64,000 nucleotides of DNA from Dictyostelium discoideum. Lineage: Eukaryota. Shown here piece after piece: positions 5,606-35,160 of the stretch. Under the pieces are notes generated by a model that was not told the DNA's origin, searched no databases, and worked only from the letters and a program-made list of their open reading frames with translations. The position numbers were made by a program, and so were the translations under genes. Each line of letters opens with the position of its first letter. Within the stretch, counting starts at the first letter, position 1. The stretch spans positions 2,336,001-2,400,000 of the forward strand of contig CM000153.2 in NCBI GenBank assembly GCA_000004695.1, in the 5' to 3' direction.

Positions 5606-6988
5606 TTACAAATTATTTTTATTAAAAATTCTATTACTAACACTTGCAACATATATTGATACAGGTATTGATGAATCAGATTGAATGAATTGATAATCAG
5701 TATTTGCAGGTACAAATAAGATTGAACCTGTATGAAGATTATTTAAAGTTGATTGATTTGATTTGTTTTCAATTGATAAATTACCTGAATAAACCAAAAC
5801 TATTGAAGGACCTTTACTTGAGTATACATTTATATTTTTACAGCAATCATCTAAATGATAGTATTCCACTTGAAATTCGTCAACGGGTGGTTGATAACAA
5901 CGATAATTAGTTAAAGATAAATCGGGTCTTTGCTGTGGTACCACTAGATCAGGTCTCCCAGTTCTGTAGGTCAACATATCACCAAGGGTGTCTACATCCT
6001 TTAACTTTGGTGTTAACCCTGCTCTAACCACATTATCAGATGGTGCCATACATTCAACACAATCACCCGATATATATGCATGTGGTTCACCAGCACCTAA
6101 AAACAAAGCCTCACCAGGTTTCAATACAATATAATTTAAAATATATGCAAAGAATACCCCAACGTCACCTGGATATTGTGAATAAAGTTTCAAAACCAAT
6201 CTATCCAAATCATCTCTCTCCTCCTCCCTCTTTTCATTCAATCTATTATTTAATTCCTTTAAATTATTTGATATTAATAAACCATCTGCTTTTAATAATG
6301 ATGTTACAATACTCTTTAAATATTCTTTACAATCATCTAATTTTATTACTAAAAATATATGTAAATATATTAAATTAGTATATACATATACATATATACA
6401 TATATGCGTGTGTGTGTTAATAATAATAATTACAATTATTTGGTAAAGAATTTTTAAATTCTGGTATTGTGTCTATAAATGATTGAATTTCTGATAATGG
6501 TCTAAAACTACATAATGCTTCGAATGGAGTTGTTGCAATTGCAATCTCTGGTTTATGATATGGGTCTTTATAGATGTTTGGATACTTTTTAAATAAAACT
6601 TGTGCTAATTGTGAATCTGGATGTGCTTGAATTGAAAGTGCTGTTCTAATTGATAAAACTTTAAATAAAAATGGAAAATCATTACCAAATCTTTTTTCAA
6701 CAATTTCACCTCTAATTGATGATGATGATGATGATGATGTTGATGATTTTTCATTTATTTCTTTTTGTACTGTATCGATATATTCTCTTAATTTTAATTC
6801 TTTATTTTTATATTCAACTTTTGATGGCGCACTAACATGATCACCCATCCAAAGTTCTGCATATGGTATTGTTTCTTTTATAATATCACTACATTCTTTT
6901 GCATATCCTTTTAATAATTTTGCAACTGTACTATTTGAACCATATTTACCCCATTCATAATTTTGTGAAACACATTTTAATAATACAA

Positions 6989-7043
<55 letters not shown>

Positions 7044-7049
7044 TTCCAT
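5606..7049 (-). CDS. Mannose-6-phosphate isomerase (type I PMI), 2 exons
   Basis: Exon 1 is 6434..7049 and exon 2 is 5606..6348 (minus). The intron 6349..6433 runs GTAATT...TTTTAG, with phase-1 continuity. PMI signatures are YEWGKYGSNS, ELWMGDHVSAPSKV, ALSIQAHPD and GEPHAYISGDCVECMAPSDNVVRAGLTPK. The N-terminus has an 18-residue poly-Asn run. Confidence 0.85.
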
Positions 7050-7825: not shown

Positions 7826-9747
7826 ATGAATTCATTTTTAGCTCGTGTTGGTTCATTAGGAAATATATTTAAATCTAAATCATTTTCACAACAATTTAGG
7901 AAAAATTTAAAGAATGAAAGTTATTATAAAAAAGTTAAAAGTAGTTGGATGAATGCAACTCAAAAACTCTTTAAATTAGATGAACCAACAAAAGGAAACA
8001 ATGTTACAATCTTTTTTACAGGTGATGAAATGTTTAGACATATGTGGGGTTGTATTAAAAGTGTAAAAATTTAAATTAATTATTAAAAAAAAAAAAAATA
8101 ATAAAAAATGTCACAAATAGAAAACTAAAAATACAAATTTTATTTTATTTTTAATTTTTCTATTAGGCAAAAGAATCAATTTATTTAGAAACATATACAA
8201 TTGAACCAGATTTAATTGGTAATAAAACCATTGAATTATTGACAGAAGCACAAAGAAGAGGTGTTCAAGTTAAATTTGCATATGATTCAATTGGTAGTTC
8301 AGGATTATCAGATTTTGATATTTATGAAATGAGAGTTTCCGGTGTTGATATCTATCAATTCAATCCGGTTGAAATTAGTTCAATATTACCATACACATTA
8401 AGAAATCATAGAAAGATTATAGTTGTTGATGAAAAGTATGGTTTTTGTGGTGGTATGAATATATCTGGTAAATATGCTTCATCAAATATGGATGGTGGTA
8501 AAGATTATTTCCGTGATACTCATTGTATGATTGAAGGACCTGCCGTTAAAAATCTTTTAAATATTTTTCATGATTCTGTTAAAGATAAAAGAATCATTGA
8601 AAAACCAGTAAATAAAATTGGTTCACCTGCTTTACTAGCTCTACATTTTCCATATGCATCTGAAATGGATTCCAAAATATATAAAAAACCAATTTATGAA
8701 TTAAATGAAGAATTTAAAGAATCAATTGAAAATAATAATCAATATATAAATAATAATGATAATAATAATTATAAAGATAAAGAACTTGATGATGAATATG
8801 AAGATGAAGATGATACATTTAATGATATAACTCAATCAACATATTATCATTATCAACCACCAATAAATAGTACAAATTATACAAATAATAATAAAATAAG
8901 GCAAAATGAAAAGAATTTAATAAAATTAGAAACACAACAACAATTTTTAAAAGATGAAGATTTAACTGAATTTACAATTGAAGATGATGATGATGATGAA
9001 GAAGGAGAGGATGATGATGAAAATGAAGATGAATTTAAAGAATTTGTATCATTAACAAGTGAATATAAAAATTTAGAGAATTTAAATAAATTAAATGATT
9101 ATTTGAATGATGAATCAAATATAAATCTAAATAATGGTAATGGTAGTGGTAGTAAAAAGATTGAAATAGTTCAATCAAAGACTATTTCAAATGCAGTTGT
9201 TCAAGTTCAACAATCAAATCAGTTTAGAAATAAAAGGGAGATTCAAAAAGCATTATTAATTGCATTGAATAAGTCGTATGATCATTGTTATTTCACTACA
9301 CCTTATTTTTTACCACCAAGAAAATTAAGAAAGGCAATTGTTAATGCCGCAAAACGTGGTGTTGATGTAAAGATTATTACGGCTGGAAAAAGTGATGTCC
9401 CTTGGTTCCGTAATGCTTCGAGATATATTTATCCACTTTTTTTAAAACATGAAAAAATTAAAATTTATGAATTGGAATCAATCACTTTACATGCGAAAAC
9501 TTTATCAATTGATGGTATGTATTCAACAATTGGAAGTTACAATTTGGATACCTGGTCTCAAAGAAATCTCGAAGCGAATCTCGCCTTCTTTAGTCCAAAT
9601 GTCGTAAAAGTTTTAGAAGATCAATTTAAAAATGATCTCAAATCCTGTAGCGAAGTAACCTTAAAAGATATTGGTAACCGTCCATTTTTAGATCGTTTAA
9701 TTTGTTTTTTCGCTTTCCAAATGAGTAAAATTTTAAAACCAACGTAA
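7826..9747 (+). CDS. PLD-superfamily (2x HKD) bacterial-type cardiolipin synthase-like protein, 2 exons
   Basis: Exon 1 is 7826..8062 and exon 2 is 8167..9747. The intron 8063..8166 has a GTAAAA donor and TTTCTATTAG acceptor, phase 0. HKD motif 1 is HRKIIVVDEKYGFCGGMNISGKY and HKD motif 2 is HAKTLSIDGMYSTIGSYNLD. The N-terminal repeat (AKESIYLETYTIEPD) is typical of Cls. A long acidic/Asn-rich insert lies between the two catalytic halves. The basic, amphipathic N-terminus (MNSFLARVGSLGNIFKSKSF) is consistent with a mitochondrial presequence. Confidence 0.75.
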
Positions 9748-10925: not shown

Positions 10926-13635
<2,710 letters not shown>

Positions 13636-26419: not shown

Positions 26420-29400
26420 TTATTTTACTAATGGTAAACGATCATAAGATAAAATTGAAGATAACCATCTTTCAGCTTCTTCTTTGGTGATTTGTTTTCT
26501 TGATGCATAAGATTCGATTTGTTCTTTAGTGATTTTACCAACAGAGAAATATTTAGCATGTTCATGAGAGAAATAAACACCACAAACTGCAGCACCAGGT
26601 AACATTGCCATATGATCGGTTAATTCGATAGAGGTATTTTCATTTACATTCATTAATGACCAAATGGTTTTCATTTCAGTATGATCTGGTTGAGCTGGAT
26701 AACCTGGAGCTGGACGAATACCTTTATATTTAATTTTGAATAAATCTTCATTTGATAATGCTTGATCCTTTTCATAGGCCCAATGTTCTCTTCTAACATC
26801 TTCGTGAACAGCTTCTGCCAATGCCTCTGCTAAACGATCAGCCAATGCTTTAGCCATGATACTTGAGTAATCGTCATTCTCTTTTTTATATTTTTCAACC
26901 ATATCTTCTAAACCAAAACCAGAACTAACAGCGAATAAACCAATGTAATCCTTTACACCCGATGAAACTGGTGCGATATAATCACCGATGGCAATGTATG
27001 GTTCATCAGTTTCCTTTTCATTTTGTTGACGAAGACCAAAGAGTGTTGCAATTGGTTTGGAACGAGTTTCATCATCATTATGATCGTAGATTATAATATC
27101 CTCATCGATACTATTAGCAGGGTAGAAACCAATTACACCACGAGCATTTAAAAGTTTCTTATCGACAATTTCCTTCAACATGGTTTGAGCATCATCAAAG
27201 AGTTTCTTTGCTTCGGCACCAACGGTTTCATCATTGAAAATACGTGGATAACCACGATTTGGATATTTACCACGTAATTGCCAAGTTACAAAGAATGGAT
27301 TCCAATCGATTTTAGTGACTAATTTCTCCAAGGAATACTCTTTGAAAACTTGAGTACCAAGGAATGTTGGTTTAACAGGTTGAATGGTTTTCCAATTAAC
27401 TTTAACACAATGTTGACGTGCTTTCTCTAAAGAAGTATATTTTCTATCCTTTAGTGAAGCATAATGTTTCTCACGAAGTTCTGCGTATTGCTGTGAAACA
27501 TCCTCTGCGAAAACTTCTTTATTATTTGGATCTAACAATGATTGAACTACAGTTACACTACGTGATGCATCTAAAACATGAACGGTTGGTTGAGAATAGT
27601 GTGGTGAAATCTTAACTGCTGTGTGAATTTGTGAGGTAGTGGCACCACCAATCATTAATGGGATTTTGAATTTAAGTCTTTCCAATTCACTTGCTACATA
27701 AATCATCTCGTCCAATGATGGAGTGATTAAACCTGATAAACCTACAACATCGGCTTTGTTGGCAATGATGGCCTCTACAATCTTTTCACATGGTGTCATA
27801 ACACCAATATCAATGACTTTGTAATTGTTACAACCCAATACAACACCAACGATATTCTTACCGATATCATGTACATCACCTTTAACAGTTGCCAAAACAA
27901 CGACACCGGCATTATCTGGTTCATCTTCTGCTGCTTCATCGTTACCTTTCTCTAAACGTTTTAATCTTTTCTCTTCCTCCATGAATGGAATTAAATGAGC
28001 TACAGCTTTTTTCATAACACGAGCACTCTTGATAACTTGTGGAAGAAACATTTTACCAGCACCAAATAAATCACCAACAACATTCATACCACCCATTAAT
28101 GGGCCTTCAATGACAGATAATGATGATGGTAATGTGTTACGTGCCTCTTCGGTATCTTCAATGATATAAGTGGTGATACCTTTAACCAAAGCATGAGCGA
28201 TTCTTTCAGACACTGGTTTATTTCTCCATTCTTCTACTTCAACATTTGCTTTCTCTGATTTATTATTGGCTTGAGCGTATTCTAATAGTTTTTCAGTTGC
28301 ATCATTGGTACGATTTAAAATTGCATCCTCTACTAATTTCAAAAGATCCTTTGGAATATCATCATAGATTGGTAATGCACCAGCATTAACGATACCCATA
28401 TCCATACCGGCGGCAATTGCATAGTAAAGGAAAGCACTGTGCATAGCTTCACGCAATGGTTCGTTACCACGGAATGAGAAGGAAAGATTAGAAACACCAC
28501 CACTTACACGAGTTAATGGCATCAATGCTTTGATCTCTCTAGTGGCCTCAATGAATTCTACACCATAGTTATTATGTTCTTCTAAACCTGTTGCAATTGT
28601 TAAGATATTTGGATCGAAAATGATATCTTGTGGATAGAAACCAACTTGCTCTGTTAGGATCTTGTATGAACGATAACAAATTCTAACTTTCTCTTCTTTG
28701 CTTGTAGCTTGACCATTTTCATCGAATGCCATAACAACAACGGATGCACCATATTGTTTAACGATTTTAGCTTGTTTAATGAACAATTCTTCACCAACCT
28801 TCAAAGAGATTGAATTGACAATACACTTGCCTTGAACACATTTTAAACCTGCCTCTACAACATCGAAATTACTAGAATCCAACATGATTGGTACCTTTGA
28901 AATCTCTGGTTCTGAGCCAATGAAGAATAAAAACTTTTGAATGGCTGCAACTGCATCAATCATACCTTCATCCATATTGATATCAATGATTTGTGCACCA
29001 GCTTCAACTTGTTGACGAGCAACTGATAATGCCTCTTCGTATTTATTGGCTTTGATTAAATTTGCGAAACGTCTTGAACCAGATACATTACAACGTTCAC
29101 CAACATTTACAAAATTTAATTCCTTTGTGAATACCAATGGCTCCAAACCAGAGAGTGTAGTATTTGGAACAAGTGTTGGAATGGCACGTGGTGCGATACC
29201 CTCAATGGCATTGCAGAATGCACGAATGTGATCTGGAGATGTACCACAACAACCACCTACAATATTTAATAAACCAGACTCGGCAAACTCCTTAATTTGC
29301 TCTGCCATCATCTCTGGTGTTTCATCGTAACCACCAAATGTATTTGGCAAACCTGCATTTGGATAACATGAAACGTAGCATTCTGAACACTTTGAAATAT

Positions 29401-30026
29401 TTTGAAGGAATGGTCTCATCTCTTGAGCACCCAATGCACAATTCAAACCGAATACCATAAGATTTGCACTTGCAACACTTGTATAGAATGCCTCACCTGT
29501 TTGACCACTCAATGTTCTACCACTCTTATCTACGATAGTACCTGAAACGAATACTGGTAATCTTGGTGAATATGTCTTGAAGAATTCCTCAATTGCGAAT
29601 AATGCTGCTTTACAATTGAGTGAATCGAAAACTGTCTCCACCAAAATCACATCAATACCACCCTCAACCAATGCTTCAACCTGTTCGAGATAACCACTTA
29701 CCAATTCATCGAATAATACATTTCTTGCTTCTGGTCTTTCGACTGATGGTGAAATCGAAGCTGTCTTATTGGTTGGACCAACTGCACCACAAACAAATCT
29801 TGGTCTACTTGGATCCTTCTTTGTATACTCTTCACATGCACTCTTGGCTAATCTTGCTGATTCAATATTAATTCTTTTAACTAAATGTTCCATCTTATAA
29901 TCTGCTTGTGAAAATATATTACCATTAAATGTATTGGTTTCAATAAAATCTGCACCTGCTTCAAGATATTTCTAATGAATCAATTATTATAAAAATATAT
30001 TTATATTAATTTATTATTATTTATTA

Positions 30027-33309: not shown

Positions 33310-35160
33310 ATGAAACTCAATAAAAGTTTAATCGCAATATTATTATTATGTTTTGTGTTATTTGTTAATATAAATGTGTCCAATGGGCAAGATAGTTCGG
33401 TAGCACAATCGGAAAACCCTACTCCTTCAAGTTCCGAACAACAAGTAGTACCATCATCACAAGAAGATCAAACAGCTTCATCAGCTGTTCCCGAACAAAC
33501 TGACTCACAACAACAAGAAGCACCAGCTCAATCATCAGCTGCCCCATCAACTGATTCACAACAAGCTCCAACAGAATCAACTGAAGCCCCAACTCAATCA
33601 TCAGTCGAACAACCAGCACCAACAGAATCAACTGAAACACCAGCCCAATCATCAGCTGCTGAACAACAAGCACCAGCAGAATCAACTGAAGCCCCAGCTC
33701 AATCATCAGCTGCTGAACAACAAGCACCAGCAGAATCAACTGAAGCCCCAGCTCAATCATCAGCTGCTGAACAACAAGCACCAGCAGAATCAACTGAAGC
33801 CCCAGCTCAATCATCAGCTGCTGAACAACAAGCACCAGCAGAATCAACTGAAGCTCCAGCTCAATCATCAGCTGCCGAACAACAAGCACCAGCAGAATCA
33901 ACTGAAGCCCCAGCTCAATCATCAGCTGCTGAACAACAAGCACCAGCAGAATCAAATGAAGCACCAGCTCAATCATCAGCTGCCGAACAATCAGCAGAAT
34001 CAAATGAAGCACCAGCTCAATCATCAGCTGCTGAACAACAAGCACCAGCAGAATCAAATGAAGCTCCAGCTCAATCATCAGCTGCCGAACAACCAGCAGA
34101 ATCAAATGAAGCACCAGCTCAATCATCCTCAACTGTAGAACAACCACCAGCTGAATCATCAGCTGCACCAGAAGCAACAGAAGTTCCAGCTGAATCTGCT
34201 GAACAACCAACTGAATCATCAAATGCTGAACAACAACAAACTGACTCACAACAACCAACTCAATCATCAGGTGAAGAACAACAACAACCAACTGATTCAC
34301 AACAACAACCAACTGATTCACAACAACAAACAACTGATTCACAACAACAACAAACATCAGAATCATCAAATCCAACCCAATCATCAGGTGAACAACAACC
34401 AACCGAATCATCAAATGCTGAACAACCAACTGATTCACAACAACCACCAGCAGAATCATCATCAGCCCCAGAAGCAACTGAATCTCCAGAACAATCAGGT
34501 GAAGAACAACCAACTGAATCACAACAAGAAACATCTGCTTCACCAACTGAAGAAAATCAAACATCTTCAACAGAAGAACAACAACAACCAGCCGATTCAA
34601 CCGCCTCTGTAGAACAACCAGCCGAAACATCATCATCACAACAAACCTCAGAAGCACCAGCTCAATCAAATGAGCAACCAACTGAATCATCTGCCTCTTC
34701 TAATCCAACTGAATCATCATCTGCTACTCCAACTGAATCATCCACAGCTCCAACTGAATCATCTGCCACACCAGCTGAATCATCAACTGCCACATCAGAA
34801 TCATCTGAAGAAACCGTTGTAAAACCAGCCTCTGGAGAAGATGGTTCAGAAGCCATTGAATCAGGAGAAACTGAAACATCAGAAGAATCAATTGAATCAG
34901 AAGAAACTGAAACATCAAATTCTGAAACAAGTCCAGCAATTTCCAAATCACCAATCAACTCTGATCCAACTCTTCCAAATATTAATGAATTTTCTGACGA
35001 TGAAAAAGCCTCACAAAAAGGTGGAAAACAAAATAAATTACATTCAAGTACAGAAGAAACTTCTGATGAAACATCATCCCATAGTGATTCATCAAACTTA
35101 AAATCAAATAGTATATTCACAATTGTAGCTGTATCATCGATTATCTATTTAATTTTGTAA
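33310..35160 (+). CDS. Secreted mucin-like Ser/Thr/Pro/Gln/Glu-rich protein with a 60-bp (20-aa) minisatellite and a hydrophobic C-terminus (GPI or TM)
   Basis: The signal peptide is MKLNKSLIAILLLCFVLFVNINVSNG. The array 33650-34110 holds about 9 near-identical units of AEQQAPAESTEAPAQSSA. Degenerate PTES/TDSQQQ repeats follow. The C-terminal tail is IFTIVAVSSIIYLIL. Confidence 0.7.
   Translation: MKLNKSLIAILLLCFVLFVNINVSNGQDSSVAQSENPTPSSSEQQVVPSSQEDQTASSAVPEQTDSQQQEAPAQSSAAPSTDSQQAPTESTEAPTQSSVEQPAPTESTETPAQSSAAEQQAPAESTEAPAQSSAAEQQAPAESTEAPAQSSAAEQQAPAESTEAPAQSSAAEQQAPAESTEAPAQSSAAEQQAPAESTEAPAQSSAAEQQAPAESNEAPAQSSAAEQSAESNEAPAQSSAAEQQAPAESNEAPAQSSAAEQPAESNEAPAQSSSTVEQPPAESSAAPEATEVPAESAEQPTESSNAEQQQTDSQQPTQSSGEEQQQPTDSQQQPTDSQQQTTDSQQQQTSESSNPTQSSGEQQPTESSNAEQPTDSQQPPAESSSAPEATESPEQSGEEQPTESQQETSASPTEENQTSSTEEQQQPADSTASVEQPAETSSSQQTSEAPAQSNEQPTESSASSNPTESSSATPTESSTAPTESSATPAESSTATSESSEETVVKPASGEDGSEAIESGETETSEESIESEETETSNSETSPAISKSPINSDPTLPNINEFSDDEKASQKGGKQNKLHSSTEETSDETSSHSDSSNLKSNSIFTIVAVSSIIYLIL

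Follow-up and report, generated by a model that had tools for sequence, protein, structure and literature searches.

A phospholipase D-type cardiolipin synthase candidate with an expanded acidic linker in Dictyostelium discoideum

Two unrelated types of cardiolipin synthase (CLS) have been described in eukaryotes. The CAP type, represented by yeast Crd1 and human CRLS1, is a polytopic CDP-alcohol phosphatidyltransferase that uses CDP-diacylglycerol (CDP-DAG) and phosphatidylglycerol (PG) in an irreversible reaction (PMC5695855). The other type belongs to the phospholipase D (PLD) superfamily and is found in Trypanosoma brucei as well as in every other trypanosomatid (PMC5695855). The T. brucei enzyme, TbCLS, is essential, a result that PMC5695855 credits to Serricchio and Butikofer (2012); T. 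brucei does not survive in culture without it, and its substrates have not been identified (PMC5695855). PLD-type Cls paralogues can use phosphatidylethanolamine (PE), make PG, or use CDP-DAG: ClsB also converts PE and glycerol to PG, ClsC uses PE, and a PLD-type enzyme of Xanthomonas uses CDP-DAG (PMC5695855).

For Dictyostelium, Tian et al. (2012; PMC3378450) recorded the PLD type (CLS_pld) as present and the CAP type (CLS_cap) as absent in both D. discoideum and D. purpureum, and cited Lykidis (2007) for the occurrence of CLS_pld in this genus. Cardiolipin occurs in D. discoideum (PMC3378450), and two later papers, PMC5695855 (2017) and PMC10411912 (2023), also assign the PLD type to Dictyostelium or Amoebozoa. 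A bacterial-type Cls in Dictyostelium has thus been in the literature since 2007 to 2012 and, given that the gene is also part of the reference annotation, finding it again adds nothing new. The patchy distribution of PLD-type and CAP-type enzymes across eukaryotes nevertheless bears on the evolution of mitochondrial membrane biogenesis, and in parasites the PLD type is a possible target for drugs. Our search of the literature on Q54P99, the D. discoideum protein described below, and on Dictyostelium cardiolipin synthase retrieved no functional, enzymatic or localisation study. There is also a small practical gain, in that the database name of the protein, "phospholipase D", is under-specific for what is a putative CLS in a genetically tractable organism.

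We analysed a 64-kb window (64,000 nucleotides of D. discoideum genomic DNA, to which all positions given here refer), for which the original prediction had proposed a PLD-type cardiolipin synthase at 7826-9747, with a presequence and a large acidic insert. These coordinates agreed to the nucleotide with the two ends of the coding sequence, start codon and stop codon, but an intron of 104 nt had been passed over. When the DNA was read and the intron removed in silico, a forward-strand gene of two exons, encoding 605 amino acids, was obtained (Table 1). Two program-listed open reading frames on the same strand, 7826-8074 and 8239-9747, were joined in this way into one coding sequence, with the frame restored and the annotated protein reproduced. 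The spliced product was 100% identical over the full 605 residues to XP_638476.2/Q54P99 of D. discoideum AX4 (the protein named "phospholipase D" by NCBI and UniProt), and the gene model is therefore that of the reference annotation. The window has a GC content of about 20-25% and contains poly-N and poly-Q coding tracts, and the third-position GC content (GC3) of the gene, 0.12, was similar to that of its neighbours. The latter are eukaryotic and encode phosphomannose isomerase (PMI), a Sin1-CRIM/RBD protein, an SF1 helicase, MetH, a RabGAP and coatomer beta. Orthologues were found across five dictyostelid genera and species, including D. firmibasis, D. purpureum, Tieghemostelium and Heterostelium. 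Scanning the 64-kb window for tRNAs gave no match.

Table 1. Features of the candidate cardiolipin synthase gene and its product (positions in the window).
Feature	Position	Strand	Details
Exon 1, codons 1-79	7826..8062	+	ATG at 7826, in frame to 8062, then GTAAAAAT; includes the candidate presequence, the helices of the N-terminus and the beginning of PLD lobe 1
Spliceosomal intron, 104 nt	8063..8166	+	GT..AG, 8.7% GC, in-frame stop codons; AT-rich
Exon 2, codons 80-605 and TAA stop	8167..9747	+	TAA at 9745-9747
Candidate mitochondrial presequence, residues 1-30	7826..7915	+	6 K/R, 0 D/E, 5 S/T; first acidic residue 31
HKD motif 1, HRKIIVVDEKYGFCGGMNISGKY, residues 160-182	8407..8475	+	H160-R-K162-x4-D167 ... 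G174 G N177; Pfam PLDc spans residues 156-182
Expanded inter-lobe linker, residues 217-423	8578..9198	+	207 aa; acidic/Asn-rich, low complexity
HKD motif 2, HAKTLSIDGMYSTIGSYNLD, residues 521-540	9490..9549	+	H521-A-K523-x4-D528 ... G535 S N538 x D540; Pfam PLDc_2 spans 443-569
C-terminal helix, residues 586-601, FLDRLICFFAFQMSKI	9685..9732	+	Confident helix in the model; aligns with bacterial and trypanosome homologues

The two HKD strings named in the original prediction were both present, each of them opening an HxKxxxxD motif. In an alignment of 56 homologues, residues H160, K162, D167, G174 and N177 of the first motif and H521, K523, D528, G535, N538 and D540 of the second were invariant. 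Pfam searches of the protein returned PLDc_2 over two segments (132.1 bits against a cut-off of 27, 1.4e-38) and the motif of the PLDc active site (39 bits against a cut-off of 21.9, 6.6e-10), a PLD match that is far beyond chance; these were the only two families found, with PX/PH, C2 and CDP-alcohol phosphatidyltransferase domains absent. An AlphaFold2 model built on the 56-homologue alignment (pTM 0.75) had a pLDDT of >90 in both lobes, and in it the protein is predicted to adopt the bilobal alpha/beta fold of the PLD superfamily with the HKD halves opposed. Compared with the PDB by Foldseek, the model matched the bilobal folds of PLD1/PLD2, PssA and Streptomyces PLD with E values of 1e-13 to 5e-17, those for PLD1/PLD2 and PssA lying at ~1e-15 to 1e-17. 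Searches of the PDB by sequence, by profile and with Foldseek found generic PLD-superfamily members and no solved Cls, and the structural comparison thus confirms the superfamily and cannot separate Cls from PLD or Pss. The Cls-like N-terminal repeats that had also been proposed were not found: BLASTP of lobe 1 against lobe 2 gave no similarity between the catalytic halves, and we rejected this claim.

The family assignment came from profile and homologue searches. The best NCBIfam models were all cardiolipin synthases (TIGR04265, 3e-60; ClsB NF008427, 1.3e-54; PRK12452, 1.7e-47), and other models were far weaker, with DrmC of the DISARM defence system at 5.9e-14 and Pss NF006946 at 8.8e-8. 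The ranking that the original prediction called for, with Cls ahead of Pss and PLD-type nucleases, was thus the one obtained. The Cls scores lay under the curated equivalog cut-offs of NCBIfam (204.6 against 290 bits and 185.9 against 281 bits), which are tuned to bacterial proteins, and the match is broken in two by the insert of ~200 aa. We accordingly place the protein within the Cls group, but not as an equivalog, in the strict sense, of ClsA or ClsB from bacteria. BLASTP against a T. brucei CLS-family protein (P0123, "cardiolipin synthetase, putative") gave a collinear alignment over residues 41-601 with an E value of 1e-61, and the T. congolense homologue matched at 1.5e-53. Cls-family affinity, a PLD fold and conserved catalytic residues are hence observed here. 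Together with the published surveys, the profiles and the T. brucei alignment bear out the idea of a bacterial-type PLD cardiolipin synthase in a eukaryote, and whether a CAP-type enzyme exists alongside it, which had been raised as a possible objection, was judged from the published listing of D. discoideum as lacking CLS_cap (PMC3378450). Judged from its sequence, the protein is very probably the PLD-superfamily cardiolipin synthase of D. discoideum, and it would act at the inner mitochondrial membrane.

The similarity to phospholipases had to be weighed against this assignment, since a hydrolytic phospholipase D, or a cardiolipin/phospholipid hydrolase, would agree with the name given to the protein by NCBI and UniProt, with the human PLD1/PLD2 catalytic domains at the top of the Foldseek list, and with the weak matches to phospholipases and to the mitochondrial cardiolipin hydrolase MitoPLD in the PDB profile search. 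The name, however, reflects domain content only, the solved PLDs are just 10-13% identical to the protein, and the PX/PH or C2 domains are missing, whereas the Cls profiles were ahead of any other NCBIfam model by about 50 orders of magnitude and the closest named homologues, the T. brucei CLS-family protein among them, are called cardiolipin synthases. Cardiolipin is, moreover, found in D. discoideum, for which PMC3378450 gives no second candidate for a CLS, and we regard a hydrolase instead of a synthase as very unlikely. A PLD-fold transferase dependent on CDP-DAG (a PGS1-type PGP synthase or Pss), or a ClsB/ClsC-like enzyme with PG as product or PE as donor, seems improbable too. The Pss profile did match, if weakly, E. 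coli PssA ranked high in the structural search, with a target-normalised TM-score of 0.64-0.69, the architecture without transmembrane (TM) helices is closer to ClsB and ClsC than to ClsA, and ClsB, ClsC and the Xanthomonas enzyme differ in donors and products (PMC5695855). The Pss match, however, was not full-length, covering 53 residues only and scoring 31.5 bits against a cut-off of 314, and identity on trimmed alignment columns was 21.7% to PssA compared with 42-45% to a Cls-like bacterial clade. Use of PE as donor would, moreover, still leave the protein a cardiolipin synthase.

Bacterial contamination of the assembly, or a very recent horizontal transfer, could be suspected from the fact that the nearest relatives outside the dictyostelids are bacterial, with 42-45% identity on conserved columns compared with 32% for the trypanosome CLS. 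Against this, the gene carries a spliceosomal intron, has the low GC3 of its neighbours and Dictyostelium-style repeat tracts, and is flanked by eukaryotic genes (those for PMI, the Sin1/CRIM-RBD protein and coatomer beta), while the orthologues from five dictyostelid genera and species formed a clade in 195 of 200 bootstraps. The intron, the codon usage, the genes on either side and the spread of orthologues led us to reject contamination or recent transfer, to which we attach a negligible probability.

We compared the protein with the described enzymes. Like TbCLS, it is encoded in the nucleus of a eukaryote, has two HKD motifs, is collinear from the N-terminal to the C-terminal helix, shows no stretch in a Kyte-Doolittle scan that is as hydrophobic as a TM segment, and carries a long insert between the PLD lobes. 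The two differ in that overall identity is just 26% (32% on conserved columns) and the trypanosome insert is basic and unrelated. E. coli ClsA and ClsB (YbhO) belong to the same Cls group of the PLD superfamily, with 26-27% identity on conserved columns; ClsB likewise has no TM helices, whereas ClsA has N-terminal ones (PLDc_N). With CAP-type CLS the protein would share only the presumed product, cardiolipin, and the presumed location in the inner mitochondrial membrane, as fold and chemistry are unrelated and the CAP domain is absent from the Dictyostelium protein.

No TM segment was detected in the protein: the Kyte-Doolittle maximum over 19 residues was 0.85, nothing reached 1.6, and the corresponding values were 2.55 for E. 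coli ClsA and 2.3-2.9 for ClsA and the homologues bearing PLDc_N. A search with PLDc_N (PF13396), which represents the two N-terminal TM helices of ClsA, gave no match, leaving the protein without the mark of the ClsA subtype. The architecture is therefore ClsB-like and TM-less, not ClsA-like, and this layout is common to other eukaryotic CLS_pld sequences and to the nearest bacterial clade. The absence of TM helices suggests that the enzyme is probably peripheral or monotopic, on the side of the inner mitochondrial membrane that faces the matrix. Hydrophobicity over 19 residues was highest at the C-terminal helix, FLDRLICFFAFQMSKIL, and this helix could serve as an in-plane membrane anchor.

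A basic, amphipathic N-terminal leader, read as a sign of mitochondrial import in the original prediction, was recovered in the composition of the first 30 residues (Table 1), with a charge of +6 and a hydrophobic moment that was moderate. The protein is longer at its N-terminus than the bacterial homologues by about 20 residues, and one of these homologues (P0008) aligns from approximately residue 21 of the D. discoideum protein. In the model, confident helices run from about residue 18-27 on, and these are present in bacterial homologues too; part of the basic N-terminal helix thus occurs in bacteria, and it is not wholly an addition for targeting. The N-terminal composition is consistent with mitochondrial targeting. 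For Acanthamoeba, another amoebozoan, a PLD-type CLS has been located in mitochondria by microscopy (PMC13632651), and this protein, a candidate homologue only, is the one external, homology-based observation consistent with such targeting.

From what is established on the chemistry of the PLD superfamily, and from the overview in PMC5695855, we infer the following mechanism; the substrates, the import into mitochondria, the topology at the membrane and a neutral insert are all parts of the proposal. A short basic presequence would direct import to the matrix side of the inner mitochondrial membrane, where amphipathic N- and C-terminal helices would hold the enzyme at the membrane. The two HKD half-sites, one from each lobe, would come together in one active site. 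If the enzyme works like the PLD-type Cls that have been characterised, the first histidine would attack the phosphodiester of a phosphatidyl donor, most likely PG, with PE or another donor being possible, and form a phosphatidyl-histidine intermediate. The free glycerol hydroxyl of a second PG would then resolve the intermediate and yield cardiolipin and glycerol, in a transphosphatidylation that would be reversible and would not need CDP-DAG.

The linker between the lobes was taken here as the region from the end of lobe 1 (D216) to the first strand of lobe 2 (V424). The Asp/Glu/Asn-rich insert of ~150 aa that had been predicted is real and lies between the lobes, but its size was put slightly too low, as the net extra length is about 160-185 aa. 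The linker was 207 aa long in D. discoideum AX4 and 139-234 aa in four other dictyostelid species, compared with 23-47 aa in the bacterial relatives and the heterolobosean Pharyngomonas, 72 aa in Amorphochlora and 179 aa in T. congolense. In D. discoideum it consists of 24% D+E and 30% N/Q/S/T, whereas the trypanosome linker, although located at the same site, is basic (38 K/R, 8% D/E) and unrelated in sequence. The acidic version was thus found in dictyostelids only, in line with the suggestion that it might be lineage-specific.

The insert was both disordered and variable. Residues 288-406 of the linker had a pLDDT of <50 in the AlphaFold2 model. Every dictyostelid examined carried the insert, with a poorly conserved sequence: identity to D. 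purpureum was 50/248 in the linker and 270/399 outside it, and when AX4 was compared with another D. discoideum strain, 23 of 218 columns differed in the linker and 4 of 399 elsewhere. The tandem repeats (AAT)n and (GAT/GAA)n were found at 8731-8813 and 8979-9032, and the GC3 of the linker was 0.05. Slippage of trinucleotide repeats is typical of Dictyostelium coding DNA, and the simplest reading is that the insert is a disordered, fast-evolving surface linker inflated by such slippage. Most likely it is tolerated and not catalytic, although its persistence across Dictyostelia leaves room for the acidic linker having acquired a role, and its length (139-234 aa) and retained charge, in a region where sequence is not conserved, could just conceivably reflect the binding of cations or proteins, for instance, at the inner membrane.

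Outside the dictyostelids, the highest scores were those of Cls-like proteins from bacteria that lack TM segments, are ~390-430 aa long and come from Myxococcota, "deltaproteobacterial" and Planctomycetota metagenome-assembled genomes (MAGs; for example P0008, P0021 and L008-L012 in our set), with E values of 1e-87 to 1e-74 and 42-45% identity on conserved columns. They resemble the D. discoideum protein in lacking TM segments and in having N- and C-terminal helices, and differ from it in their 23-47-aa linker and in the lack of the N-terminal extension. Tian et al. (2012; PMC3378450) reported no particular close bacterial relative for eukaryotic CLS_pld. We built a neighbour-joining (NJ) tree from Kimura-corrected p-distances over 381 trimmed columns of 53 sequences, including E. 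coli ClsA, ClsB, ClsC and PssA, and bootstrapped it 100-200 times. Support was confined to shallow clades, among them the dictyostelids (195/200). The grouping of eukaryotes with the TM-less bacteria was recovered in 39-61 of 200 bootstraps and that of the dictyostelids with a bacterial subclade in 100 of 200. Both phosphatidyl-transfer motifs of the eukaryotic CLS_pld group are present in the D. discoideum protein, and monophyly of the eukaryotic sequences was recovered in 1-34 of 200 bootstraps. As the deep nodes of this tree are poorly supported, the bacterial link remains a lead and not a result.

It is nonetheless conceivable, if doubtful, that eukaryotic PLD-type CLS share an origin with the TM-less clade of Myxococcota and Planctomycetota, or that the acidic linker of dictyostelids gained a function. 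The shared origin, for which we draw on the bit-score ranking from two independent eukaryotic queries and on the weakly supported NJ tree, may, if true, mean that a mitochondrial membrane-lipid enzyme had a non-alphaproteobacterial donor.

Some further observations were made on these bacterial proteins. Whether the query was from Dictyostelium or Trypanosoma, the best bacterial matches were of the same TM-less type of ~390-430 aa. A scan of species-representative genomes gave matches in Myxococcota, "delta proteobacterium" and Planctomycetota MAGs with E values of 3e-47 to 1e-42, followed by a gap to 1e-33. The contigs that carry these relatives are clearly bacterial, and genes of the trp operon or hrcA-grpE-dnaK adjoin those of the TM-less clade.

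The PLD-type cardiolipin synthases (CLS) of Dictyostelium and Trypanosoma were found to have the same single group of Cls-like proteins as their closest bacterial relatives. The members of this group (among the homologous proteins P0008-P0060) lack transmembrane segments, are approximately 390 to 430 aa long and come from MAGs of Myxococcota, a "delta proteobacterium" and Planctomycetota (GTDB MAG contigs L008-L012, as well as L001 and L002), where their gene surroundings are clearly bacterial. An earlier survey of CLS_pld had identified no particular bacterial relative (Tian et al. 2012, PMC3378450). The deep branching order was not settled by the NJ tree of CLS homologues (53 sequences, 381 trimmed columns).

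Comparison of the AX4 protein with that of a second D. discoideum strain (P0003) revealed that the acidic linker between the two PLD lobes differs in length, with 207 versus 218 aa, and that it carries 23 differences in 218 columns, compared to 4 in 399 for the remaining protein. The indels of the linker fell within (AAT)n and (GAT/GAA)n tracts. The trypanosomatid enzymes (P0073 and P0123, the latter from T. brucei) carry a basic insert of approximately 180 aa at precisely this point between the lobes, and it is independent of the acidic dictyostelid one. Since unrelated inserts occupy the same position, the inter-lobe linker of eukaryotic PLD-type CLS seems to have undergone expansion more than once.

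Features around the Cls gene, in window positions
Feature	Position	Strand	Evidence
ORF, probable continuation of the phosphomannose isomerase gene	5606-6241	-	
Type I phosphomannose isomerase exon	6417-7049	-	PMI_typeI_cat, 6.8e-42
Acidic linker of CLS (residues 217-423)	8578-9198	+	
A-rich tandem array, (AATA)n / 26-37-nt periodic, starting right after the Cls stop codon	9745-9829		TRF score up to 126
802-aa ORF	10926-13334	+	Sin1 CRIM domain, 2.5e-8; Raf-like Ras-binding domain, 2.1e-6
MetH, cobalamin-dependent methionine synthase, complete	26420-29893	-	all five Pfam domains
Long overlapping ORFs	33310-35160 / 33419-34690	+ / -	

The tandem array 3' of the Cls gene is typical of Dictyostelium 3' intergenic DNA, and the predicted N-terminus of the phosphomannose isomerase opens with 18 asparagines in a row. 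The two domains of the 802-aa ORF suggest a Sin1/TORC2-subunit-like, Ras-interacting protein; this ORF also contains very long poly-Q tracts and extends beyond a likely intron.

Farther along, MetH had the highest GC content of the five neighbouring ORFs measured (0.366), with a GC3 of 0.24, approximately twice that of the Cls gene. The stretch with the overlapping ORFs was also relatively GC-rich (0.33), with a strong negative GC skew (-0.31), and a Pfam search of its plus-strand ORF gave no match; it is probably a repeat-rich coding region in which the antisense ORF is spurious.
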